From NCBI GenBank assembly GCA_043812095.1, contig JBDRMO010000021.1, forward strand, positions 1 through 42,937: 42,937 nt of DNA, read 5' to 3'. The DNA is from Candidatus Omnitrophota bacterium. GTDB taxonomy: Bacteria > Omnitrophota > Gorgyraeia > Gygaellales > Profunditerraquicolaceae. The notes beneath the pieces are model-generated. The model ran no database searches. It saw only the letters and a program-made list of their open reading frames with translations, and was not told where the DNA came from. Within the stretch, counting starts at the first letter, position 1, and every line of letters begins with the position of its first letter. Position numbers and translations under genes: made by a program. This document shows, one piece after another, positions 26,817 through 42,683 of the stretch.

Positions 26817-28919
26817 ATGGGTAACTTTGATTTATTGTTGTTGGCGCCGGTCGGCTCCATAATCGCATTGTTATTTGCCGCCTATCTTGCCTTCTGGATC
26901 CTTTCCAAGGATCAGGGAACTCCGATCATGAAGGAGATTGCTCAGGCAGTTAAAGTCGGAGCAAAGGCTTATCTAAAGAGGCAGTACGCGGTAGTATCAA
27001 TATTCTTCATCGTAGTTTTTATCCTGTTATTAGTTCTGGCATTAAAAAAATATTTAGTTATTTTTGTCCCGTTTGCTTTCCTCACCGGTGGTTTCTTCTC
27101 CGGCCTTGCCGGGTTTATCGGAATGAGTATCGCAACCCAATCCTCTAACCGTACAACCGCAGCTGCAATGAAGAGCCTGAATTCCGGATTGCGCGTAGCT
27201 TTCTCAAGCGGAGCTGTAATGGGTTTGGTAGTAGTGGGTTTAGGGCTTTTGGATCTGAGTATTTGGTATTATTTTCTTGATTGGTATTATTCCGGTCACG
27301 CTATACCTGTGGGAACAGATAAAATTACGGCAATTACATCGACAATGCTTTGTTTTGGTATGGGTGCCAGTTCCCAGGCATTATTTGCCAGGGTAGGTGG
27401 AGGTATTTTTACCAAAGCAGCTGATGTCGGAGCAGATTTGGTAGGAAAGGTTGAGGCAGGAATTCCCGAGGATGATCCGCGTAATCCGGCAGTTATTGCA
27501 GATAATGTAGGTGATAATGTCGGTGACGTAGCAGGTATGGGCGCTGATCTTTACGAGTCTTATGTGGGTTCGATAGTGGCTACTGCGGCTTTGGGTGTTG
27601 CTGCTGGTTTGGGAGTGGCAGGCGTAACCGTTCCCATGGTTATGGCTGCGGTAGGAGTTATCTGCTCTATATTAGGTACTTTTTTTGTTAGAAGCAGCGA
27701 AGAAGCAAAGCAAAATGTTTTATTGGCCGCGCTCAGAAAAGGGATCTTTGTCAGCGCGATATTAGTTGCGGTAACTTCATATTTTTTAGTTAAATTTACA
27801 TTAGGCTTGGAGAACATGGGAGTTTATTGGTCGGTGCTTTCCGGCTTGATTGCAGGAGTCTTGATCGGGTTATCCACAGAATATTACACTTCCAGCAACT
27901 TTAAGCCTACGCGTTCTGTTGCAGATGCATCTTTAACCGGTCCGGCTACGGTTATTATCAGCGGTATGTCCGTAGGAATGATGTCGACTTTTTTCCCGGT
28001 GATTATTATCGGGATAGCGATTCTAGCCAGCTTTTTTCTTTCCGGAGGAGCATCTAATTTCGAGGCCGGCCTTTATGGCGTGGGTATCTCTGCGGTAGGG
28101 TTATTATCAACATTAGGCATAACTTTGGCCACAGATGCCTATGGGCCGGTGGCTGATAATGCCGGCGGCAATGCCCAAATGGCAAATTTACCTCCGGAGG
28201 TCAGGAAAAGAACCGATGCTTTAGATGCACTGGGGAATACTACTGCTGCTACGGGTAAGGGCTTTGCTATAGGGTCTGCTGCTTTGACGTCTTTGGCTTT
28301 GATCGCCGCTTATAGAGAGCAGGTTGCTTTATACGGTAAAGAGATGACTTTAAGCCTGATGAATCCCAATATCTTGGTAGGGTTATTTATCGGCGGAATG
28401 CTCCCGTTTCTTTTTTCCTCTATGACCATGCGTGCAGTAGGCAGGGCAGCAGGTAAAATCGTAGTAGAAGTACGCAGGCAATTTAAAGAAATAGTCGGGC
28501 TTATGGAAGGCAAGGCAAAGCCTGATTATGCCCGCTGTGTAAACATTGCTACCTCGGCAGCACAAAAAGAGATGATTCTGCCTTCCTTAACCGCTATTAT
28601 TGCCCCTATTGCGGTTGGTTTGCTTATAGGAGTAGAGGCAACAGTAGGACTTTTAACAGGTACATTGGTATGCGGATTTGTTCTGGCAATAATGATGGCT
28701 AATTCCGGAGGGGCCTGGGATAATGCCAAGAAATATATTGAGGAAGGCAATCTCGGAGGAAAGGGATCTTTTGCTCATAAGGCCAGCGTGGTAGGGGATA
28801 CTGTCGGAGACCCATTTAAAGATACTGCGGGCCCGAGTATCAACATTTTGATTAAACTCATGTCTATGGTCTCTATTGTTTTTACCTCTTTTGTCATCTC
28901 TAATACCCTCTTTAAATAA
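26817..28919 (+). CDS. hppA: Membrane-bound ion-translocating pyrophosphatase
   Basis: Diagnostic motifs include GGGIFTKAADVGADLVGKVE, DNVGDNVGD, DAYGPVADNAGG, GNTTAATGKGFAIGSAAL and GDTVGDPFKDT. Confidence 0.95.
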   Translation: MGNFDLLLLAPVGSIIALLFAAYLAFWILSKDQGTPIMKEIAQAVKVGAKAYLKRQYAVVSIFFIVVFILLLVLALKKYLVIFVPFAFLTGGFFSGLAGFIGMSIATQSSNRTTAAAMKSLNSGLRVAFSSGAVMGLVVVGLGLLDLSIWYYFLDWYYSGHAIPVGTDKITAITSTMLCFGMGASSQALFARVGGGIFTKAADVGADLVGKVEAGIPEDDPRNPAVIADNVGDNVGDVAGMGADLYESYVGSIVATAALGVAAGLGVAGVTVPMVMAAVGVICSILGTFFVRSSEEAKQNVLLAALRKGIFVSAILVAVTSYFLVKFTLGLENMGVYWSVLSGLIAGVLIGLSTEYYTSSNFKPTRSVADASLTGPATVIISGMSVGMMSTFFPVIIIGIAILASFFLSGGASNFEAGLYGVGISAVGLLSTLGITLATDAYGPVADNAGGNAQMANLPPEVRKRTDALDALGNTTAATGKGFAIGSAALTSLALIAAYREQVALYGKEMTLSLMNPNILVGLFIGGMLPFLFSSMTMRAVGRAAGKIVVEVRRQFKEIVGLMEGKAKPDYARCVNIATSAAQKEMILPSLTAIIAPIAVGLLIGVEATVGLLTGTLVCGFVLAIMMANSGGAWDNAKKYIEEGNLGGKGSFAHKASVVGDTVGDPFKDTAGPSINILIKLMSMVSIVFTSFVISNTLFK

Positions 28920-29828: not shown

Positions 29829-30869
29829 TTATAAATCGAGTATTTTATCTGAATAAGTACTAAGGGTATTTTTATATTGATGTTTTATCAAGGAAGAATT
29901 AATTAACTTTTCTGCCTTTCCTCTCAATAAATTAATTTCATCTCTAACATAATCTAATGCTTTTGAGGTTATTATAATATTTCGTATTTTATTTAAATCT
30001 CCGCTCGTTACTGTATTTTTCACGAAAATTCTTTTGATGATTTTTTGATTTCTATTATCCGAGTGGTGATAGGCGTACCAAACCAGCAGTGTCTTTTTAG
30101 CTTCCTGCAGGTCGGTGAGAGTAGACTTTCCGATCATTTTTTCAGTTTCAAACATTCCGATAATGTCATCTTTAATCTGAAAAGCCCTGCCTAAATATAG
30201 ACCGTAATTAAAAATAATATCAACTTGTTTTTTAGAAGCACCGGCTAAGATTGCCCCGATACTTAAGGGTGAGGCAAAGGTATAAGTTGCGGTTTTTAAA
30301 TCGTATATTTTGTAGATTTCTTCCTTCGACATCTTTTCGATACTTTTAAGGCCGCAGAGCAGCTCGAGAAATTCTCCGCCACCGGTATAGAAGGCAGCTT
30401 CGCTGAATTTCTTTAAGGCTAATTCTTTGCGGTAGAGATTTTCCTTTACAGAAAGGAAGGCATGCACTGCCATTGCATACATAACGTCGCCTGTAACAAT
30501 CGCCAGATCCTCTCCACTGAACTTGTGGTTATTCTTACCTTTTAGATACTTATTGAACATTTCGTGCATCGAAGGCTTACCTCTTCTGGTAGCCGATTTA
30601 TCGATTATATCATCATGCACCAGCATAAAATCGTGCAGAAGCTCCAGGGAAATTGCGGTTCTGTAGAGGTTAGGGGCAATTCTCGGGGCAAAGCCGAGAT
30701 AGCCGATTATAAGCATGGAAGGTCTTATACGTTTGCCTTTTCTTAAGATAAACTCTTTTATTGATTTAAAGAGAAGAGGGGATATCTTATTTAGGGAGTA
30801 TAAGCTGTCTAGGTCAAGTATGAATCTATGAAGTTCGCTGTCAATCCTCTTTTTTATTGCCAAAAGCAT
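29829..30869 (-). CDS. Polyprenyl diphosphate synthase (trans-isoprenyl diphosphate synthase family)
   Basis: First and second Asp-rich motifs LVHDDIID and FQIKDDIIG. Confidence 0.88.
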   Translation of the reverse strand: MLLAIKKRIDSELHRFILDLDSLYSLNKISPLLFKSIKEFILRKGKRIRPSMLIIGYLGFAPRIAPNLYRTAISLELLHDFMLVHDDIIDKSATRRGKPSMHEMFNKYLKGKNNHKFSGEDLAIVTGDVMYAMAVHAFLSVKENLYRKELALKKFSEAAFYTGGGEFLELLCGLKSIEKMSKEEIYKIYDLKTATYTFASPLSIGAILAGASKKQVDIIFNYGLYLGRAFQIKDDIIGMFETEKMIGKSTLTDLQEAKKTLLVWYAYHHSDNRNQKIIKRIFVKNTVTSGDLNKIRNIIITSKALDYVRDEINLLRGKAEKLINSSLIKHQYKNTLSTYSDKILDL

Positions 30870-30916
30870 AAATTATATGTTAACATAAGGCGTACGGCAA
30901 TTCAAATAAAATTAAG

Positions 30917-31807
30917 ATGATTAAAGACATTGCGCGGGCTTTAAGATTACCGTTTGTTACCGCTAGCATTCTACCCTTTATCTTCGGTTCTTTTATCGAA
31001 AGAGAAGATTTCAATGTTTTAGGTTTTATTCTAGGGTTAATCGCGGCAATTTCTGTTCACTTGAGCGCTAATCTGATTAATGACTATGCTGATTCAAAGA
31101 GCGGCGCTGACTGGCAGGATAGAAAGTTCTATAAGTTCTTTGGAGGATCAAAGCTAATCCAGGAGAAAGTGTTCTCTGAGAAATTCTATCTTCAGCTAGG
31201 TATAGCCCTAGCTTTCCTTTCATTATTTAGCGTTATTCTCTTAGCTTTAGTTTTAAGAAGTCCGTCTGTGATCATCTATTATCTGATTATTATTTTCTTA
31301 GGTTGGTCATATTCAGTTAAGCCGCTGCAACTTTCTTACAGGAGACTGGGTGAACCTGTGCTCTTCGTTTTGTTTGGTCCTGCTTTGGTTATGGGAGGGT
31401 ATTTTATCCAAACAGGTGTATTTCCTGACTTGAGAAGCTTTATGCTATCATTACCTTTTGCTTTTCTGGTTACTTTGATTTTGTTTGTTAATGAAATCCC
31501 GGATTTTACTGAAGATAAAAGAGCATTTAAATTTAACTGGGTAAGCTTTGTAGGTTTAAAGCAAGCCTTCGTTATCTATTATCTGCTAGCCTTTAGTGTG
31601 TTATTAGCCGTAGTCCTAAATATCTGGCTAGGGTATTTAAGCATGCGCGTTTTATCTTGTCTGGTTTTTACCTTTTTAATAGTAAAAACCGGTAATATTT
31701 TAAAGAGGGAATTTAATCATAAGACAAAATTAATCCGCTCTTCCCAATTAACCATTGCGTTACAAATGTTGATTGGAATTATATTAATACTGGATCTATT
31801 AGTATGA
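30917..31807 (+). CDS. UbiA-family aromatic prenyltransferase (MenA-like)
   Basis: Polytopic membrane protein with NLINDYADSKSGAD (NDxxD motif). It is divergent from the polyprenyl synthase gene. Confidence 0.75.
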   Translation: MIKDIARALRLPFVTASILPFIFGSFIEREDFNVLGFILGLIAAISVHLSANLINDYADSKSGADWQDRKFYKFFGGSKLIQEKVFSEKFYLQLGIALAFLSLFSVILLALVLRSPSVIIYYLIIIFLGWSYSVKPLQLSYRRLGEPVLFVLFGPALVMGGYFIQTGVFPDLRSFMLSLPFAFLVTLILFVNEIPDFTEDKRAFKFNWVSFVGLKQAFVIYYLLAFSVLLAVVLNIWLGYLSMRVLSCLVFTFLIVKTGNILKREFNHKTKLIRSSQLTIALQMLIGIILILDLLV

Positions 31808-32934
31808 AAAAAATTGTAATAATTGGAGGCGGTTTTGCCGGTTTAAGCGCAGCCCAAGCTTTGTTCAGTCAGAGAAGACAGGTTGAAGTTATATTGATAG
31901 ATAAAAAACTGAATTTTAATTTTTTGCCTCTTTTGCCGGATACGATTGGTAGAAAAATAAGCACTGATTTTATGACTTATTCTATCAATGATTTAAGTAA
32001 GAGGTATAGATTCCGATTTATTAACGGGGATGTCTACACTCTTGATTTGAAGCAAAATAAAGTATTCACATCAAGGCAGGAACTTTTCTATGATTATCTA
32101 CTTATTGCCAGTGGATCGGAAACTAATTTTTACGGCGATAATATTGCAATGAAAAGCGCTTATAAGCTGGATGATATCGAGGACGTAAAGAAGATCTGCC
32201 TGGGCATAGAAAAGGGGAGCTTTAATTGCTATCTTATCATCGGAGGCGGTTACACGGGCATAGAGATAGCCACGAATCTTAGAGCGCGATTGAACGGAAA
32301 ATCTCGTCACGAGAAGATAGTGATTATTGAACGAGCTGCTTCGATTTTAGGGCCATTGCCCGAATGGATGAAGGCTTATGTAGGTAATAACCTTAAAATG
32401 ATGGAGATTGAAGTTTTATTGAATACTTCTATTAAGAAAATTGAATCAAGAGACATTTATTTAAGTAATGGATTAACTTTTAAAAATGCTATGTTGATTT
32501 GGTCTGCCGGGGTAAAAGCCGCAAACTTTATTGATGATTTAAAAGTAGAAAAAAATCCTCAAGGAAGGATTAAGGTCGATGAGTATTTAAGATTGAACGA
32601 GGATTGTTTTGTAGCCGGAGACGCAGCCCATTTCCCTTATAAAAAATCATTTTTAAGAATGGGCATTCAATTCAGCATAATAGAGGGTAGATGCGCCGCG
32701 AATAATATAATCAGAAGCATAGGAGGTAAGAGGCTTCATAAATATAGGCCAATAGATTTAGGCTATATCGTACCAATGGCTAATAACAAGTCCTGTGGTG
32801 GAGTTCTAGGTTTAAAAATAAAAGGTTTTCTAGCTACGTTTTTTCATTATATAATGTGTATATACCGTTCTTATTCGTTTAGGTGCAAATTAGGAATAAC
32901 GCGAAGCTTGATAACCGGGGGAGGTAAGAAGTGA
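31804..32934 (+). CDS. Type II NADH dehydrogenase-like FAD-dependent oxidoreductase
   Basis: IVIIGGGFAGLSAA and IIGGGYTGIEIA dinucleotide-binding motifs, plus GDAA near the C-terminus. Confidence 0.8.
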   Translation: MKKIVIIGGGFAGLSAAQALFSQRRQVEVILIDKKLNFNFLPLLPDTIGRKISTDFMTYSINDLSKRYRFRFINGDVYTLDLKQNKVFTSRQELFYDYLLIASGSETNFYGDNIAMKSAYKLDDIEDVKKICLGIEKGSFNCYLIIGGGYTGIEIATNLRARLNGKSRHEKIVIIERAASILGPLPEWMKAYVGNNLKMMEIEVLLNTSIKKIESRDIYLSNGLTFKNAMLIWSAGVKAANFIDDLKVEKNPQGRIKVDEYLRLNEDCFVAGDAAHFPYKKSFLRMGIQFSIIEGRCAANNIIRSIGGKRLHKYRPIDLGYIVPMANNKSCGGVLGLKIKGFLATFFHYIMCIYRSYSFRCKLGITRSLITGGGKK

Positions 32935-36141: not shown

Positions 36142-37659
36142 ATGTCCAAAAGAGACAACGTGGTTTTTTTATTATCCGCTTACTGTACAGCTGTCTGTAT
36201 ATTTGTCACCCAATTTTGCCCTTTAAGCTGGGCTTTCGCAACCTCCTCCTTTTCTGACCGCTTCAAACTTCCCGCAGAGTACGGAATTATTAAAGAAGTA
36301 TCTGAAGATACGTTTGCTCAAGATAAACCCACGATCATTCATATCCAAGACGCCCACTGCAACTATGAAGCCCAGAAGAATATGTCTTATCTTTTAGAGT
36401 ATCTCGTAAAGCAATACGGTGTAAAGCTGATTATGGTTGAAGGCGGAAGCGGTGATGTAGGGCTTTCATTTTTAAGGGCATACGCCGATAGCGGAGAAAG
36501 AGTGAAAGTTGCCGAGAAATATCTGAAGCAGGGTAAGATTTCAGGTGAAGAGTATTTAGATATTATCTCTGATTATGACTTGCAGCTCTTTGGAATCGAG
36601 GAAGAGGGATTATATGAAGCTCATCTGGTTGCTTTTAAAACCGTAGATTCGATCAGGACAGAAAGCGCCCAATATTTAAAAGAGCTATCCAAAGTAGCAG
36701 ATAAATTAAAAACATATATCTATAGTGATTCACTCAAAGAATTGGAAAAAAAAGAGAGGGATTACCAGGAGAAGACGATTACCTTAGTCGAATATTGCCA
36801 GTTCTTAAAAGATGCGGCCCTGGTTAGCGGATTAAGCCTCGATGATTATTACCATATAGCTTCTTTTGCTCAGACCGCAAAATTAGAAAAGGAAGTCGAT
36901 TTCAAAGCCGCAGAAGCAGAGCGTAATATTTTCATTAAAGATTTAGCTAATTGTCTTGATGAAGAGGGTATAGAAGAGCTGCTCAGGATGAGCCAGGGCT
37001 TTAAGGAAAAAGAATTAACCCCTTACCGTTATTACTCATTTTTGAAGCAATTATCAGAGGATAAAATTACACTTTCAGAGAATTATCCGCAACTAGAGAC
37101 GTATATCAGTTATATAGTGGTAAGCGGTAATATAAACAGTGCTGATGTATTGAGTCAGGTAAATAGCGTAAGCGAAAAGATAAAGGGAAATAGTTTTACT
37201 GATCAAGATGAAAAAAAACTCAGTCAGATTTCAAAGGCGATAGGCATTCTCTCTATGTTGCTTAATTTCGAACTCACTCCTGAAGATTATGATTATTTCC
37301 TCAAAAATCGCTCTGATTTTTCCACCTCCTCTTGGGTTAGTTTCATTAAGATGGAAGGTCAAAGATACGGTATATATTCCTGTCCTGGTGCTTCATCGTT
37401 GATTGATAACAACTTAGAGAAATTGGCAGAATTCTATAAATTAGGAGTTGAAAGAGAAAAGGCTTTTATCAAAAATCTGGTTAAAAGAATGAATCAATCC
37501 GGAGAAAGATCTGCGGTTCTGATTACAGGCGGTTTTCATACACCGGGTATCACAGAGATGTTAAAAGAAAAAGGATACTCCTATATAGTCGCAATGCCGG
37601 TAATTACAGAAAAAAGCGATTCAGAGGTATATTTCTCCGTATTAAGAGGAGAGAGGTAA
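36142..37659 (+). CDS. Secreted hypothetical protein, possibly Tiki/TraB/GumN/ChaN-superfamily
   Basis: N-terminal signal-like segment ending in SWAFA. IIHIQDAHCNYEAQ near the N-terminus and VLITGGFHTPGITEMLKEKGYSYI near the C-terminus recall the GTxH ... GxxHL.G..G....L...GY motif pair of that superfamily. This assignment is weak. Confidence 0.45.
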   Translation: MSKRDNVVFLLSAYCTAVCIFVTQFCPLSWAFATSSFSDRFKLPAEYGIIKEVSEDTFAQDKPTIIHIQDAHCNYEAQKNMSYLLEYLVKQYGVKLIMVEGGSGDVGLSFLRAYADSGERVKVAEKYLKQGKISGEEYLDIISDYDLQLFGIEEEGLYEAHLVAFKTVDSIRTESAQYLKELSKVADKLKTYIYSDSLKELEKKERDYQEKTITLVEYCQFLKDAALVSGLSLDDYYHIASFAQTAKLEKEVDFKAAEAERNIFIKDLANCLDEEGIEELLRMSQGFKEKELTPYRYYSFLKQLSEDKITLSENYPQLETYISYIVVSGNINSADVLSQVNSVSEKIKGNSFTDQDEKKLSQISKAIGILSMLLNFELTPEDYDYFLKNRSDFSTSSWVSFIKMEGQRYGIYSCPGASSLIDNNLEKLAEFYKLGVEREKAFIKNLVKRMNQSGERSAVLITGGFHTPGITEMLKEKGYSYIVAMPVITEKSDSEVYFSVLRGER

Positions 37660-37661
37660 AC

Positions 37662-40600
37662 ATGTCTAGGTTTAATAAGTTTAATCAGGAGGAGAAAATG
37701 TCAGGAGAATTTCTTAAGAGAGCATTATTTTCAAAATTATTGTTTGGCTTAATAATCAGCAGTTTTATTCTGTCGGGTTTTCCCGTACAGCTCTTTGCTA
37801 AATCAGATAAGCTAAGGCCAAAGGCGGCCAGCAGCAGCCTAGATACAGTAGGTAGCATGTTACGGGAATTAAATCAGGAAGGTTCAGCGAGCAGCGCAAT
37901 AGCAGCTGCTGAAGTCCTGGTTTTGACTAATAAATTGGATCTTTTAACAGGAGCGCGTACGCGCGGCTTTAACGTAGTACACGCCGTTGAGGAAGGTGCG
38001 CAGGGAGTGATCATTAATCACTCAGAACCAAGAAAAGATTTAGAGATAGCGATGGAGAATATGTTAATCGCTGTAAGAGATCTAATCAGGAATAAGGCCG
38101 ACTTCAAGAAAATTGAGCAAAAATGGGTCAATACTTTAAAGACAGAGAATCTATCTGACGATGCGATAGTGATGACAAAAGCGATGCTACTTGGATTTAG
38201 AGACTTAAAAAGACGCGATGCTAAAATAATAGAAAGCAATGCCCGTAGCTTAGTAAATACAATAATGAATCAGCGCTTAAAGAGTGTAATTGAATATAGT
38301 AATAAGTACGGGCATCCGTTTGCTCAGACTGTTCTCTGCGTAGGCGAAACAGAGCCGCAATATGATGCCAGAATGACCCAGGAAGTCTTAAGGGAAGATT
38401 TAGAGGAAATATTGAATTTAGTAAAGCATGAGGATGCCCAAAGAGTGAATTTAAGAATTGCCTATGAGCCCCGTTGGGCAATCGGGACCGGCAAAACACC
38501 TACGGCTGAAGAAATTCAGGCAACACACAGCTTCATTAAGGATACAGTCGAAGCAATATTAAGAGCAAGACTTGATGTTGATTATGGCGGGAGCTTAAGT
38601 GCAAAGAATGCAAAGGAGATTCTGGCACTGAAAGATGTTGACGGCGGATTAATCGGAGGAGCATCAAAATCTCCCAAGAATATTGAGCCGGTGATTGATG
38701 AAGCAATCCGTCAAGGAAGGATAAAAGATAAGATACTAAATATAGGTATGAATTGGAAGGCTGAAGAAGTAGAAACCGGCTTAGCGTCAATTGAAGATTT
38801 TGTTAAACTTTTCAAGACAAAGAATTTATCCAGAGTGCAAATTGCAATCGGCACACCTACGGTTCCAAAAGTCAAGTTAGCGATGAGTGAGTTAGAGACA
38901 TATCTTGCCAAAACTCATCCTATAGCCGAGCAATTGATCAGCAGGCTTACTAAAGCGATTCGGGAACAAGACGCAACGGTACGTAATGAAGTATTGGAGG
39001 AGATCGGCCAAGTAGGCGGAGATGAGGTTAGAAAGTTTTTAGATATTTTCCTCATTCAAGATAAGGGAGCAATTAATGAAGCACAGATTGCTGCCTTAAA
39101 ATCGAGATTAATCAAGAAGGTAGCTCCTCAACTATCCCCGAAACGAATAGCAATATTCGGAGACGGAGCAGTAAGCCGTTTAGCAGCCAGAAGAATTGCC
39201 GGAGGAAATTATGAAAATTTGGAATTAGTGGCTATGGTTACTAATAGCAGCGGTAAAGAATTATTTCCTTTTATGATCCGCGACAGCCATTTCGGGTCTT
39301 ATCCGGTTCAGGCGAATGTAACAGGTGAGCTTTTTAAAATGGGAGAACAGGAAGAATCAGTAAGGATACTTTCTGCAAAACTATTCGATCGTCTACCTTT
39401 TGAAGCGCTAGGAGTGGATATCATTATTATAGGTGAGCGAATACAAAAACAGATAGGTAAAGAAAAGTTAACGCAACTTTCAAAATCACATAATGTGCAG
39501 GTAGTCCTTAGCAGGTCATCAGACGAGGAGTTCAGCGTTTATTTACCTACATTATCCGATATAGCCTCTTTACGCCAGCGTACCATAACCGTTCCTTCTG
39601 CTCAACATGCCGCAGTGCTATTAGGTGCCAGGGCTTTAGCCGGGCTTGGGCAGATTAAGTCAGTGAATACCCATGTTCTGGAGTCATGGTTGGGTAAGGT
39701 ATTGCCTAGCTATAGGCATCCGGGAGCATACCAGACACAACATACGGAAGATACAAGATTTAGAACATTGTTAGCTCAAACTTTCGGCATATCGCCGGAC
39801 AATATTACTAACAATACGATTCTAAAGACGCAAATCTCTCACGGTCAGATGATCGGACTAACTATCCTTTTAGATAGAGAGGTGACTAAAGAGCAGGTTA
39901 TCGAGAAATTTAGTGAAATTGCGAAAGAGAGCAACGTTTTGGCATTTCCTGAGCCGGGACTCAGGCTTACTTCCAATATTATTACCGGAGAAGAGCCGGT
40001 ATATTTTAGTCCCGATGATGTTTATTTGACGCAGTTCCCCGGAGGAACGGCGGTTAAGGTTTTATTATTAGTTGACGAGGATAGCGCGCATGTAAACCAT
40101 ATTTTTGATGCGATAGAAGCTCAAAGAGCTACGGTATCAGAAATTGAGCCTATTATCGAAGATGTCTCAGGGGAGTTTGCTGAAAGTCAGATACTGAGCG
40201 AGGCATCAGAAGCGCTTAAGTCCGAAGCTGGTAAAAAAGCTCAAGAGAAGCTAGAAAAAGCCAAAGTAAAACTTTCAGCTTATGAGCAGGCAAAAAAGAG
40301 TATCCTGGATTTTACCAGCAATGACACAAGACTTCTTGGTATGCATTTAAATGATGATATTAAATTATTATTTGCTGTGTCTGACAATCTACCTAATATG
40401 TTCATATATGTGCGTGGTAAGGATAGAAAGCCGCTTGGGTTAGCTTATGCGGAAGGCAATGTAATCAACTCTGTTCTTCTGGCGACTCCTTCTAAAATAG
40501 AAGAAACTCAAGAGACTTTAGAGGAGTATTATGCTTCTTTAAGGGAGATGGCGGTTAATCTTTCCCAAGTTAATGGATCAACAATAACAGTACTGGATCA

Positions 40601-42683
40601 TTATAGGCCGGAATCAAATTTGCGTGTTAGGTTTGAAATTGATTCAAGGAGATATCCGGGTATAACACTCTATAAATCTATTGAGCAATTGATCGGTAAA
40701 GAATGGGTGATTTTATCTGAGCCTAATATGGCGATAGATCCTAAAGAATTTAAGGGTAAATACGTTGTAGCCTTGAACGCCGCAGGAGGAAGGATCGGCA
40801 GTTTAGTATTTAGGTTAGGAAGCGAGAAGGAGAATCTGCGCTTTATTGCATTAGGAGGACCCGGAGGGAATGATCTGGTAAATCTTTTAAAAAACAGAGA
40901 TTATGTGCAGGGAACTTTCCCCGGGGATATTAAATACGGGGAAGACTGGATAGAGGTTAATGGCAGGCGTTCGGTACTCTTAAGCAATAGAACTAAAACC
41001 GGAACCTTCCGGAGCAGGGAAAATTTACCCTGGGGTACTTTTATCTTTGCCGGGGTGAAAGTGGATGCGGTGATTGATGCTGCTGGCGCAGATGCTTTAA
41101 AAACCGAAACATTGGATTTGCACCGTAAGGCAGGAGCATTGCGAGCTTTACCTACTGCACCGGGTAAGGGTGAACATTTTAATCATAATACATTTGTTAT
41201 GGATGTTAATGATCATTTATATAGGCCGGATGTGAATTATGTAATGTCAACTGCGTCTTGTACAACCGGATGCCTGGCGAATCTCAATAGAGTTGCAGAG
41301 TTAGCTATGGCTTTTAAGACAGGGTTAATTGACCAAAAAGCTTTTGTGAAAGCTGATTCCAAGACAAAGAAAGATATGATAAACAGTGCTTTAAACAAGG
41401 ACTTAAACCTTTACGGCCTTATGGTAACTTATCATGCCTTAACCGGAGAAATACCAGGGCCGGATGTTGTGGCTGACGAAAAGAAACAGACCAGAAAACG
41501 AAACCCGGAAGGCAATATCATACCTACAACTACCGGAGCTGCTAATGCTATCGGACAGGTGGATCTTATGACAACCAAGATGTCCGGTTTTGCCGTACGT
41601 TTTCCGACAGACGTTGGTTCATTAGTAAGCAGTACCTATATATTACCGGGAACTTATTCAAGAGAAGATTTTATTGATGCCGCTAAATTTGTCGAAGCGA
41701 TTGCCGGAAAAGTAAAAGTAATTAACGTTGATAATAGCGCAGAGATTAAATTAAACGAAGATTTCAGGACGATGATGGCGACAATCAGCCCGGATAAGAT
41801 CAAGGTAGTCAATTTTATTGACGGCAACGGCGAAAAGAAAACAATGGTTGAGTTATCGGCATGGTATGAAAATGAACGCTATTACGCATATGAGATGGTG
41901 CGTTTCCTTGATGAGGTAATGAGGGCTAAAGACAGCGAAGCGTCTCTTGAACAGGCCTTTACCAATTATGCATTAGCAGGTCAAAAAGTTCATAAAGCTT
42001 TGGGGGGGAATTATCTTAATGCTTATGTCAGAGGTATAGGTGATTTAGTTAATAAAGATAAAGAAACCAAAAATACACCCCGCGCTTTACTTGTTGCTCC
42101 GGGATTCTTTAAATCAAAGGGTGCGATTAATGCCTTGCGGGAAGCATCCGGCATTAACAATATGTTTATTGCACTCTTCGGAGGCAATGCAGAGAAATTT
42201 AAGAGTTTACTCGGAGGCGGTGATAATATTATTGCCCGTGAACAGTTCTGGCAGGTATTAGTAGATCTAGAGGGAAAAGGCCTGAAATCTGATCAGATTC
42301 TTTTCTTGGGAACACCGGAAGATGCCGCAGTGTTTAGATCGATGCAAGAATCGGCAGATTTATTTCCTTTACTTGAAACAGGAGAAATTAAACAGATATT
42401 GGCAAAGCCGCAGACTCTAAGTACTTTAGTTGTTGCTAAGGCGATGAGAGAACTCTATAAAGAATTTGCAGAAGAAACTACGGTACACTTTAGAGATCTT
42501 CACACCGCGCTGGTAGAAGACGGAATTATCGCTCCCCTAACGGATGCGGAAGTAATGTATTCTCTGCTAGCGGGCCTAGAGACAGTGGTATATGAATTTC
42601 CGGATATAGTTCCGCAGACAGAAGTTACCGATATAGTGGCAAACGAGCTGAATATTATTAAAGAATTCGTAACAGGTGTATAA
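37662..42683 (+). CDS. Giant signal-peptide-bearing fusion protein: permuted triosephosphate isomerase-like domain, degenerate GAPDH-like module, GAPDH-like module, unknown C-terminal region
   Basis: TIM motifs are GAQGVIINHSEPR, VLCVGET, AYEPRWAIGTGKTPT, YGGS, DGGLIGGASK and then GMNWK. GAPDH module 1 (aa 494-815) has IAIFGDGAVSRL and TVPSAQHAA in place of SxxSCTTNC. GAPDH module 2 (aa 1033-1417) has GGRIGSLVFR, STASCTTGCLA, TYHALTG, NIIPTTTGAANA, AVRFPT and WYENE. An alternative start at ATG 37698 follows AGGAGG and aligns with the paralogue's N-terminus. Confidence 0.8.
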   Translation: MSRFNKFNQEEKMSGEFLKRALFSKLLFGLIISSFILSGFPVQLFAKSDKLRPKAASSSLDTVGSMLRELNQEGSASSAIAAAEVLVLTNKLDLLTGARTRGFNVVHAVEEGAQGVIINHSEPRKDLEIAMENMLIAVRDLIRNKADFKKIEQKWVNTLKTENLSDDAIVMTKAMLLGFRDLKRRDAKIIESNARSLVNTIMNQRLKSVIEYSNKYGHPFAQTVLCVGETEPQYDARMTQEVLREDLEEILNLVKHEDAQRVNLRIAYEPRWAIGTGKTPTAEEIQATHSFIKDTVEAILRARLDVDYGGSLSAKNAKEILALKDVDGGLIGGASKSPKNIEPVIDEAIRQGRIKDKILNIGMNWKAEEVETGLASIEDFVKLFKTKNLSRVQIAIGTPTVPKVKLAMSELETYLAKTHPIAEQLISRLTKAIREQDATVRNEVLEEIGQVGGDEVRKFLDIFLIQDKGAINEAQIAALKSRLIKKVAPQLSPKRIAIFGDGAVSRLAARRIAGGNYENLELVAMVTNSSGKELFPFMIRDSHFGSYPVQANVTGELFKMGEQEESVRILSAKLFDRLPFEALGVDIIIIGERIQKQIGKEKLTQLSKSHNVQVVLSRSSDEEFSVYLPTLSDIASLRQRTITVPSAQHAAVLLGARALAGLGQIKSVNTHVLESWLGKVLPSYRHPGAYQTQHTEDTRFRTLLAQTFGISPDNITNNTILKTQISHGQMIGLTILLDREVTKEQVIEKFSEIAKESNVLAFPEPGLRLTSNIITGEEPVYFSPDDVYLTQFPGGTAVKVLLLVDEDSAHVNHIFDAIEAQRATVSEIEPIIEDVSGEFAESQILSEASEALKSEAGKKAQEKLEKAKVKLSAYEQAKKSILDFTSNDTRLLGMHLNDDIKLLFAVSDNLPNMFIYVRGKDRKPLGLAYAEGNVINSVLLATPSKIEETQETLEEYYASLREMAVNLSQVNGSTITVLDHYRPESNLRVRFEIDSRRYPGITLYKSIEQLIGKEWVILSEPNMAIDPKEFKGKYVVALNAAGGRIGSLVFRLGSEKENLRFIALGGPGGNDLVNLLKNRDYVQGTFPGDIKYGEDWIEVNGRRSVLLSNRTKTGTFRSRENLPWGTFIFAGVKVDAVIDAAGADALKTETLDLHRKAGALRALPTAPGKGEHFNHNTFVMDVNDHLYRPDVNYVMSTASCTTGCLANLNRVAELAMAFKTGLIDQKAFVKADSKTKKDMINSALNKDLNLYGLMVTYHALTGEIPGPDVVADEKKQTRKRNPEGNIIPTTTGAANAIGQVDLMTTKMSGFAVRFPTDVGSLVSSTYILPGTYSREDFIDAAKFVEAIAGKVKVINVDNSAEIKLNEDFRTMMATISPDKIKVVNFIDGNGEKKTMVELSAWYENERYYAYEMVRFLDEVMRAKDSEASLEQAFTNYALAGQKVHKALGGNYLNAYVRGIGDLVNKDKETKNTPRALLVAPGFFKSKGAINALREASGINNMFIALFGGNAEKFKSLLGGGDNIIAREQFWQVLVDLEGKGLKSDQILFLGTPEDAAVFRSMQESADLFPLLETGEIKQILAKPQTLSTLVVAKAMRELYKEFAEETTVHFRDLHTALVEDGIIAPLTDAEVMYSLLAGLETVVYEFPDIVPQTEVTDIVANELNIIKEFVTGV

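Follow-up and report, generated by a model that had tools for sequence, protein, structure and literature searches.

Triosephosphate isomerase (TIM) gave its name to the commonest of the enzyme folds and serves as a standard model in work on folding, catalysis and design. Natural circular permutation of barrel enzymes has been described in other families. The GH70 glucansucrases, compared with the GH13 alpha-amylases, are large multidomain secreted proteins whose (β/α)8 catalytic barrel is naturally permuted with its motifs kept (Chem Rev 2024, PMC11046441), and transaldolase B, as that work is cited in a later paper, has been proposed to be a natural circular permutant of an α/β-barrel enzyme relative to the class I aldolases (Jia et al., 1996, cited in PMC7092467). 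Circular permutants of the sTIM11 and DeNovoTIM series show that the fold tolerates relocated termini (PMC13105402, PMC8250049); these are man-made, and in the literature searched none of them is the TIM enzyme itself. Our literature search brought up no earlier account of a permuted TIM enzyme, whether natural or engineered. As for gene fusion, the PGK-TIM protein of Thermotoga joins TIM to a glycolytic neighbor (NCBIfam PRK13962), and the giant “Archaeovorins” of the Omnitrophota are reported to contain TIM, FBA, PGM and PPDK domains and to be predicted extracellular, in a preprint that names TIM once (bioRxiv 10.1101/2023.11.21.568195).

The window analyzed here is a stretch of 42,937 nucleotides from a Candidatus Omnitrophota bacterium, and an open reading frame on its forward strand (37662..42683) encodes a protein of 1673 amino acids (aa) composed of a signal or anchor segment, a permuted TIM domain, a degenerate GAPDH-like domain, a GAPDH domain and a conserved C-terminal domain. 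All features described below lie on this strand. We consider that the TIM domain as a whole (aa 85–418) forms a single closed circularly permuted (β/α)8 barrel (cpTIM), a reading to which we assign a probability of about 0.78. It has the same catalytic Asn, Lys, His and Glu as canonical TIM (TpiA; PF00121; E. coli 4IOT/1TRE), the lid AYEPxWAIGTG, the phosphate motifs YGGS and GGAS and a predicted (β/α)8 fold alike, with about 40–45% identity over β5-β8. Unlike the canonical enzyme, its chain runs through β3-β8 and then β1-β2, its termini lie in the α2-β3 loop, it carries an insertion of ~70 aa after β4, and it is placed inside a large fusion behind a signal-like helix and scores below the NCBIfam equivalog cut-offs. 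The likeness to GH70 lies in the natural permutation of a catalytic barrel with motifs kept, whereas family and chemistry are unrelated and the GH70 break falls before α3 (α3-β4...β8-β1-β2-β3) instead of before β3. Transaldolase B is likewise a central-carbon α/β-barrel enzyme with a proposed natural permutation, but that case, as presented in the citing paper, was inferred structurally between distant families, while cpTIM has clear sequence homology and apparent intermediates survive. The Thermotoga fusion keeps the canonical TIM order. With the Archaeovorins the window protein has only glycolytic domain content and phylum in common, being far below giant size and having no cell-wall-binding or degrading domains among those found.

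The first-pass annotation had described, by eye, a TIM circularly permuted with all catalytic residues kept at positions 37914–38891, which correspond to aa 85–410 of the reading frame, and both the order (β3-β4, insertion, β5-β8, β1-α1-β2-α2) and the coordinates that it gave for the motifs hold. The β3-α3-β4 segment (aa 85–123; 37914..38030) holds the HSE motif with His120 and Glu122 (aa 120–122; nt 38019–38027). The β5-α8 segment (aa 222–355; 38325..38726) contains CVGET (aa 226), AYEP with Glu269 (aa 267–270; nt 38460–38471), the TIM lid AYEPRWAIGTGK and the phosphate-binding motifs YGGS (aa 308) and GGAS (in GGASK, aa 332). The tail, β1-α1-β2-α2 (aa 356–418; 38727..38915), has LNIGMN as β1 and VQIAIGT as β2 and includes NWK (aa 364–366; nt 38751–38759). 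The alignment of the β3/β4 region to E. coli TIM that had been made by eye is also obtained with phmmer (E. coli residues 65–100).

Profile comparison supports the same arrangement. In the native chain order Pfam TIM matches aa 222–346 only (profile 118–243, 125.8 bits, the cut-off being 20.1), and the β3-β4 stretch by itself matches profile positions 67–98 with an E value of 0.0033. Against a canonical profile built from 58 TIM sequences, a set cleaned of truncated cpTIM fragments, the body aligns in hhalign to positions 58–247 (E 8e-61), and a profile of the family tails aligns to positions 2–51 (score 36.1, P 5e-6, probability 86%); among 100 controls with shuffled columns the highest score was 17.7. 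By this comparison the tail is homologous to canonical β1-β2, and the whole canonical enzyme is thus tiled with each segment present once in rotated order. A de-permuted construct, with the tail in front and the insertion removed, is matched by Pfam TIM in a single stretch over 3–243 of 245 profile positions (135.5 bits). The tail alone gives no Pfam match, and its inclusion lifts the Pfam score by 4.4 bits only. No conventional β1-β2 is found upstream of residue 85 (profile P 0.12 over 2 columns), where the stretch between the hydrophobic N-terminal helix and β3 is just 38 residues long. The domain gives no full-length colinear match in the canonical β1-to-β8 order and fails all of the NCBIfam TIM equivalog cut-offs, with 66.8 bits against 130.6 for TIGR00419 and 66–73 bits against 255–309 for the PRK00042 variants. 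The equivalog models miss it because the order is rotated and the insertion is present, and metabolic reconstructions of Omnitrophota could for this reason call too few TIMs.

An insertion of about 90 aa had also been noted between the HSE and CVGE strands; the insertion is real, but its length is closer to 68–75 aa. The stretch that hhalign leaves unaligned against canonical TIMs is aa 130–197 (38049..38252), between β4 and α4. The spacing from His to Cys is 106 aa here and 31 in E. coli TIM, and the spacing from His to YEP is 148 aa against 73 in insertion-free relatives. The AlphaFold2 model predicts the insertion as helical (helices at model residues 42–101). It is carried by 24 representative clusters and missing from 10, and this ~70-aa helical element after β4 would be a later, clade-specific gain.

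Structure prediction had been proposed as a check on the permutation, and the AlphaFold2 model of aa 80–420 is confident, with one compact body of exactly eight strands (pLDDT 94.1, pTM 0.92) obtained, as with the second model described below, from shallow alignments of 32 and 22 sequences. The β3 and β4 strands lie at model residues 6–10 and 36–39, the tail, with pLDDT 88–96, has its strands at LNIGMN (280–285) and VQIAIGT (313–319), where β1 and β2 fall in canonical TIM, and the loop from α8 to the tail β1 has ~3–4 residues. Were the 62-residue tail unplaced, the pTM could reach no more than ~0.82, whereas it is 0.92. In Foldseek against the PDB the top 50 matches are all TIMs (E about 1e-12), with TMt 0.58–0.68 over 254–279 alignment columns, which fits a colinear match of β3-β8. 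From the pTM, pLDDT, strand count and loop length we infer that the tail completes the barrel of its own chain. In this predicted arrangement the chain would begin at β3, pass β8/α8 and turn through the short loop into β1-α1-β2-α2, which would close the barrel beside β3 and bring Asn364 and Lys366 to the site with His120 and Glu269; the former N- and C-termini would be joined and the new termini would lie in the old α2-β3 loop.

The full catalytic set is present, namely Asn364 (nt 38751–38753), Lys366 (nt 38757–38759), His120 (nt 38019–38021) and Glu269 (nt 38466–38468). Among 32 diverse relatives whose identity to the window domain is 28–60%, N364, H120, E122, E269 and G332 are conserved in every one and K366 in 31. 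The domain has most likely kept the ability to interconvert DHAP and glyceraldehyde-3-phosphate.

Homologues with the same permuted order had been suggested as a further line of evidence, and they exist in number. An initial search returned three same-order relatives only, and an exhaustive profile search recovered the family, in which the H..E..N.K order is seen in 34 of 45 representative clusters. The seven relatives traced in the genome collection all belong to Omnitrophota metagenome-assembled genomes. On these sequences the permutation is a conserved family trait within multi-enzyme fusions and no isolated oddity. An assembly or frameshift artefact was considered and rejected as unlikely, since independent assemblies yield the same order across dozens of clusters. 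Some relatives depart from the single-copy form. In the tandem P0147, Pfam recognizes a canonical TIM (profile 2–244) that spans the first copy's tail and the second copy's body. The ten-unit forms P0191 and P0237 have, in addition to the C-terminal tail, a decayed N-terminal β1'-β2', in which Lys is lost in both and Asn is also lost in P0237; their C-terminal tails retain N-H-K. In the AlphaFold2 model of P0237 the N-terminal copy has pLDDT 50–72 and the tail 88–92, a result that the alignment composition could bias. Foldseek aligns the canonical length in this model, but with an rmsd of 13–15 Å and TMt 0.65–0.72, which suggests that the N-terminal β1-β2 copy is left out of the canonical position and agrees with the earlier placement of the GMNWK segment within the barrel. 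The insertion-free, ten-unit and tandem relatives fit an origin by duplication and loss. The permutation probably arose inside fusions by tandem duplication of TIM, decay of the first β1-β2 and loss of the second β3-β8.

Two other readings of the tail have to be weighed against intramolecular closure. The tail might enter the six-stranded body of a partner in a 3D domain swap, so that the polyproteins would exist only as dimers or polymers. Canonical TIM is itself a dimer, polyproteins could benefit from head-to-tail assembly, the tandem P0147 places a tail beside the following body in sequence, and the structural evidence for closure within one chain is a monomer prediction. However, the modeled link from α8 to β1, with ~3 residues, is a typical intramolecular α-β turn and confidence in the monomer model is high as it stands, so that we regard such intermolecular complementation as improbable. 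Alternatively, the tail could be what is left of a second, truncated copy of TIM and lie outside any barrel, with the first domain an incomplete and inactive relic. Duplication leftovers do occur in the cpTIM family, as the tandem and ten-unit relatives show, and the native-order Pfam match is confined to profile positions 118–243. On the contrary, the tail Asn is invariant and its Lys nearly so in the 32 sequences, where the whole active-site set is conserved, and in the ten-unit relatives the decay falls on the N-terminal copy while the tail is spared. The eight strands, a pTM higher than an unplaced tail would allow and the short α8-β1 loop also speak against GMNWK opening a truncated domain of its own, and we find this reading very hard to credit.

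The location of the protein bears on a third alternative. The sole strongly hydrophobic segment of the protein in a Kyte-Doolittle scan is aa 20–46, and together with the basic N-terminus (aa 1–46; 37662..37799) and the architecture of relatives it is predicted to be a Sec-type signal peptide or signal anchor. It is followed by SDKLRPKAA (aa 48–56; 37803..37829), an instance of the motif [S/T/A]D.LR..(A/S)A. Many cpTIM relatives are fusions in pathway order, such as cpTIM-GAPDH-PGK-enolase and FBA-cpTIM-GAPDH, and one operon encodes FBA+PFK, PPDK and cpTIM-GAPDH-PGK-enolase. A signal-like N-terminal helix followed by this conserved motif is common to all of the polyproteins of these operons. 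The barrel might then be closed and permuted as proposed, with the protein exported and serving outside cytoplasmic glycolysis, where it would process or bind triose or sugar phosphates extracellularly or at a prey interface, or have a non-catalytic role, as has been suggested for the glycolytic domains of the Omnitrophota giants. The helix and motif favor this, as do the giant Omnitrophota proteins with TIM and other glycolytic domains that are predicted to be extracellular (bioRxiv 10.1101/2023.11.21.568195) and the loss of the catalytic Cys from one GAPDH-like domain of the two in this protein. However, the operons encode PFK, FBA, TIM, GAPDH, PGK, enolase and PPDK following the order of the pathway and so resemble the cell's own, extracellular NAD, ADP and phosphate chemistry is implausible, and the helix is basic on both flanks, which makes its topology ambiguous. 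It does weigh against our main reading that the N-terminus looks like an export signal, for this would place NAD- and phosphate-dependent enzymes extracytoplasmically, which sits badly with glycolysis of the ordinary kind. Overall we consider a role of the exported protein outside the pathway unlikely.

In the reading that we favor, the 1673-aa protein would be one unit of a membrane-targeted, pathway-ordered set of glycolytic fusions in Omnitrophota, and the TIM product glyceraldehyde-3-phosphate would most likely pass to the GAPDH domain of the same polypeptide. It is possible, though we would not presume it, that many Omnitrophota encode the full Embden-Meyerhof trunk (PFK, FBA, permuted TIM, GAPDH, PGK, enolase and PPDK) as a few pathway-ordered polyproteins, each opening with the same hydrophobic helix and D-x-L-R-x-x-A-A, forming a membrane-tethered or even extracytoplasmic assembly line. 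The permuted TIM would then be the sole TIM, its permutation would have been fixed because chain ends in the new place favor in-line fusion or assembly, and the ten-unit and tandem forms would record the steps of duplication and loss. Signal-bearing polyproteins in pathway order raise questions on the spatial organization of glycolysis in ultra-small, possibly predatory bacteria. A natural and conserved permutant with its active site split over the new chain ends gauges how much topology change is compatible with catalysis, if catalysis is retained as predicted, and the family provides ready-made sequences for folding and engineering work. Tandem, ten-unit and fully permuted forms are seemingly all preserved, a rare direct record of permutation by duplication.

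The remainder of the polyprotein is glycolytic in part. A Pfam and NCBIfam scan of the 1673 residues found the TIM and GAPDH families only. The GAPDH domain (aa 1036–1415; 40767..41906) is intact as read from its motifs, with the catalytic SCTT (aa 1199) and TYHALT (aa 1256). The degenerate GAPDH-like domain (aa 495–819; 39144..40118), in which the catalytic Cys motif is replaced by VPSAQHAA at aa 644, surfaced only by phmmer against the PDB, and BLASTP of this middle region against the GAPDH domain was not significant. The conserved C-terminal domain (aa 1433–1673; 41958..42680) had no relative in PDB or Pfam searches and also occurs in P0003 and in the L003 protein. Upstream of the polyprotein lies a gene of 505 aa (36142..37659) with a hydrophobic N-terminus, for which no Pfam family matched. 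This gene is found upstream of the cpTIM polyprotein on the same strand in L001/L002, L004, L005 and L007; it adjoins the polyprotein directly in L007, and the gap is ~8 kb in L004, in L005 and in L001/L002, where a PPDK giant lies between.

The region 37914-38891 falls within a single plus-strand ORF (37662-42683, 1673 aa), whose translation carries the triosephosphate isomerase (TIM) motifs exactly where the first-pass annotation had placed them: HSE (aa 120-122, nt 38019-38027), CVGET (aa 226), AYEP (aa 267-270, nt 38460-38471), YGGS (aa 308), GGASK (aa 332) and NWK (aa 364-366, nt 38751-38759). Read in native order, Pfam TIM is confined to aa 222-346 (profile positions 118-243 out of 245, 125.8 bits), and the β3-β4 piece by itself matches profile positions 67-98 (E 0.0033). 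A phmmer search against PDB sequences pairs aa 223-344 with E. coli-type TIM residues 123-245 (E about 1e-24) and, weakly, the β3-β4 piece with TIM residues 65-100, so that both colinear pieces of an alignment to E. coli TIM once made by eye are recovered. The catalytic residues, the motifs, the profile score and the fold predicted for the domain place it in the TIM family, yet it fails both the canonical chain order and the NCBIfam equivalog thresholds, the protein scoring under the cut-off of every NCBIfam TIM equivalog model.

The evidence for a rotated order turns on the C-terminal tail (β1-α1-β2-α2), which by itself has no match in Pfam. When aa 355-420 are placed ahead of the body (β3-β8) and the insertion is taken out, Pfam TIM runs unbroken over 3-243 of 245 with 135.5 bits, against 131.1 bits for the body construct without the tail. 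Profile-profile comparison is a stronger test of tail homology than single-sequence Pfam, and here 32 relatives of this circularly permuted TIM (cpTIM) were compared with 58 canonical TIMs from a cleaned set. The body matches canonical positions 58-247 (E 8e-61) and the tail (68 columns) positions 2-51 with a score of 36.1 (P 5e-6, probability 86%), whereas the top score among 100 column-shuffled tails was 17.7. The 38 residues linking the N-terminal helix to β3 have no TIM match in this comparison, and thus no conventional β1-β2 is found upstream of residue 85. Body and tail together thus cover the entire enzyme once, in rotated order.

An AlphaFold2 model of aa 80-420 (model residue 1 being aa 80), built with a 32-sequence alignment, has a mean pLDDT of 94.1 and a pTM of 0.92. 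DSSP assigns exactly eight strands to it, each followed by a helix: β3 (model residues 6-10), β4 (36-39), β5 (143-148), β6 (185-189), β7 (227-229), β8 (249-252), β1 (280-285, LNIGMN, with the catalytic Asn at its end) and β2 (313-319, VQIAIGT). The linker from α8 (259-276) to β1 is three residues long, the tail has pLDDT 88-96, and the insertion is modelled as a helix bundle (42-101) ahead of α4. From the definition of pTM, a ceiling of about 0.82 would be expected if the 62 tail residues were unplaced, and the observed value is higher. The best 50 Foldseek matches in the PDB are all TIMs (E about 1e-12) with TMt 0.58-0.68 over 254-279 alignment columns, as should be expected of a sequence-order-bound alignment of β3-β8 plus the insertion. 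Closure of the barrel by the protein's own tail is a strong inference from this model. The first-pass observation is confirmed, and its interpretation as a permuted TIM is supported by the profile-profile order and the modelled strands; the insertion, put at ~90 aa, is corrected to about 70-75 aa.

Homologues in the same permuted order, a search for which had been proposed as a check, exist in number. A word-indexed protein search returned only three, and an exhaustive profile search yielded some 45 representative clusters (50% identity level), 34 of them with the full His..Glu..Asn-x-Lys order and the remainder fragments for the most part. In the domain alignment (n = 32, sharing 28-60% identity with the window domain) every sequence has H120, S121, E122, E269, N364 and G332, and 31 have K366. 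A species-representative genome collection yielded seven relatives, every one from a Candidatus Omnitrophota MAG, with ORFs of 809 to >3900 aa. The domain is a TIM of rotated topology, conserved across its family, and every family member assigned to a genome belongs to Omnitrophota. The insertion is present in 24 clusters and absent from 10; the permutation is probably the older event, because insertion-free cpTIMs have about 73 aa from His to YEP, a spacing about equal to that of canonical TIM.

Several relatives bear on how the permutation arose. P0147 (NCBI UCB57229.1, Omnitrophota, annotated "triose-phosphate isomerase, partial") is a tandem (aa 4-420) of one partial and one complete permuted copy, and Pfam finds in it a canonical-order TIM (profile 2-244, aa 102-361) spanning the copy-1 tail and the copy-2 body. 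Two further relatives, P0191 (aa 46-392) and P0237 (aa 1490-1838), have ten units, namely an N-terminal β1'-β2' alignable with canonical β1-β2, then β3-β8 and the family tail, followed by PGK. In both, the Lys is missing from the N-terminal copy, and in P0237 the Asn as well (FCVNPTS, ICSSLGS), while the C-terminal tail keeps G-N-H-K. In an AlphaFold2 model of P0237, the N-terminal copy has pLDDT 50-72 and the tail 88-92; Foldseek aligns it over full canonical length (257-272 columns) at an rmsd of 13-15 Å with TMt of only 0.65-0.72, a pattern that fits a displacement of ~55 aligned residues far from the canonical position and so an N-terminal copy outside the barrel. This evidence is supportive and not decisive, because the alignment, with 11 canonical and 11 permuted-family homologues in equal numbers, is shallow. 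The ten-unit domains are apparent intermediates of the permutation, and together with the tandem form they are consistent with classical duplication-then-loss.

GH70 glucansucrases are known natural circular permutants of the GH13 (β/α)8 barrel (PMC11046441), transaldolase B is a proposed further case among the class I aldolases (Jia et al., 1996, as cited in PMC7092467), and designed barrels tolerate permutation (PMC13105402, PMC8250049). A full-text literature search that covered few subscription journals, so that absence is not proof, returned no description of a permuted TIM, whether natural or engineered, and the Omnitrophota literature examined makes no mention of one. The cpTIM family is of relevance to protein evolution, engineering and the annotation of Omnitrophota genomes.

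Downstream of cpTIM lies a degenerate GAPDH-like domain (aa 495-819, nt 39144-40118; E 1e-4 to T. maritima GAPDH, PDB 1hdg), probably a pseudo-enzyme or scaffold copy, in which the catalytic Cys motif has become VPSAQHAA (aa 644). The GAPDH that follows it (aa 1036-1415; SCTT and TYHALT present; Pfam N- and C-domains at aa 1043-1371) is intact. The C-terminal domain of ~240 aa (41958-42680) has no relative in Pfam or PDB and is shared with the L003 locus protein and with P0003 (31% identity), a cpTIM protein otherwise short. In the relatives, too, the fused domains follow pathway order: cpTIM-GAPDH-PGK-enolase (P0128), class II FBA-cpTIM-GAPDH (P0137), GAPDH-TIM-PGK (P0237) and TIM-PGM (P0147). 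The most economical reading is that the window cpTIM would be a working TIM supplying the adjacent GAPDH.

At locus L083 (1-17680) the glycolytic trunk is mostly on three giant ORFs in pathway order, within one operon encoding FBA+PFK(+GAPDH-C) (1792 aa), PPDK (2506 aa), a 577-aa protein and cpTIM-GAPDH-PGK-enolase (2559 aa); in L001 and L084 a PPDK giant adjoins the cpTIM gene. All glycolytic polyproteins of these operons open with basic residues followed by one hydrophobic helix and a conserved [S/T/A]D-x-L-R-x-x-(A/S)A motif, in the window protein a helix at aa 20-46 and SDKLRPKAA at aa 48-56 (37662-37829), with similar N-termini at L001 1941 and 10001, L083 620, 8235 and 10001, and L084 709 and 7233. 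This N-terminus looks like an export or anchoring signal, and its motif may be a common sorting or anchoring signal; the enzymes may be tethered on the cytoplasmic side or may truly be exported. Giant Omnitrophota proteins with TIM and other glycolytic domains have been predicted to be extracellular, a localisation possibly wrong according to the authors themselves (2023 preprint, 10.1101/2023.11.21.568195). "Glycolysis on a string" with a common N-terminal signal may be the larger story.

A 505-aa ORF (36142-37659) with a hydrophobic N-terminus and without any Pfam family precedes the polyprotein gene. Its homologues (35-53% identity, 46% in L001) lie upstream on the same strand in L001/L002, L004, L005 and L007, directly abutting the cpTIM ORF in L007 only. 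The conserved motifs IIHIQDAHCNYEAQKNM and LITGGFHT presumably resemble those of Tiki/TraB type. Elsewhere in the window, a membrane H+-pyrophosphatase (905 bits) and a polyprenyl synthase/UbiA prenyltransferase/FAD oxidoreductase cluster (26817-28919 and 29829-32934) are ordinary genes.
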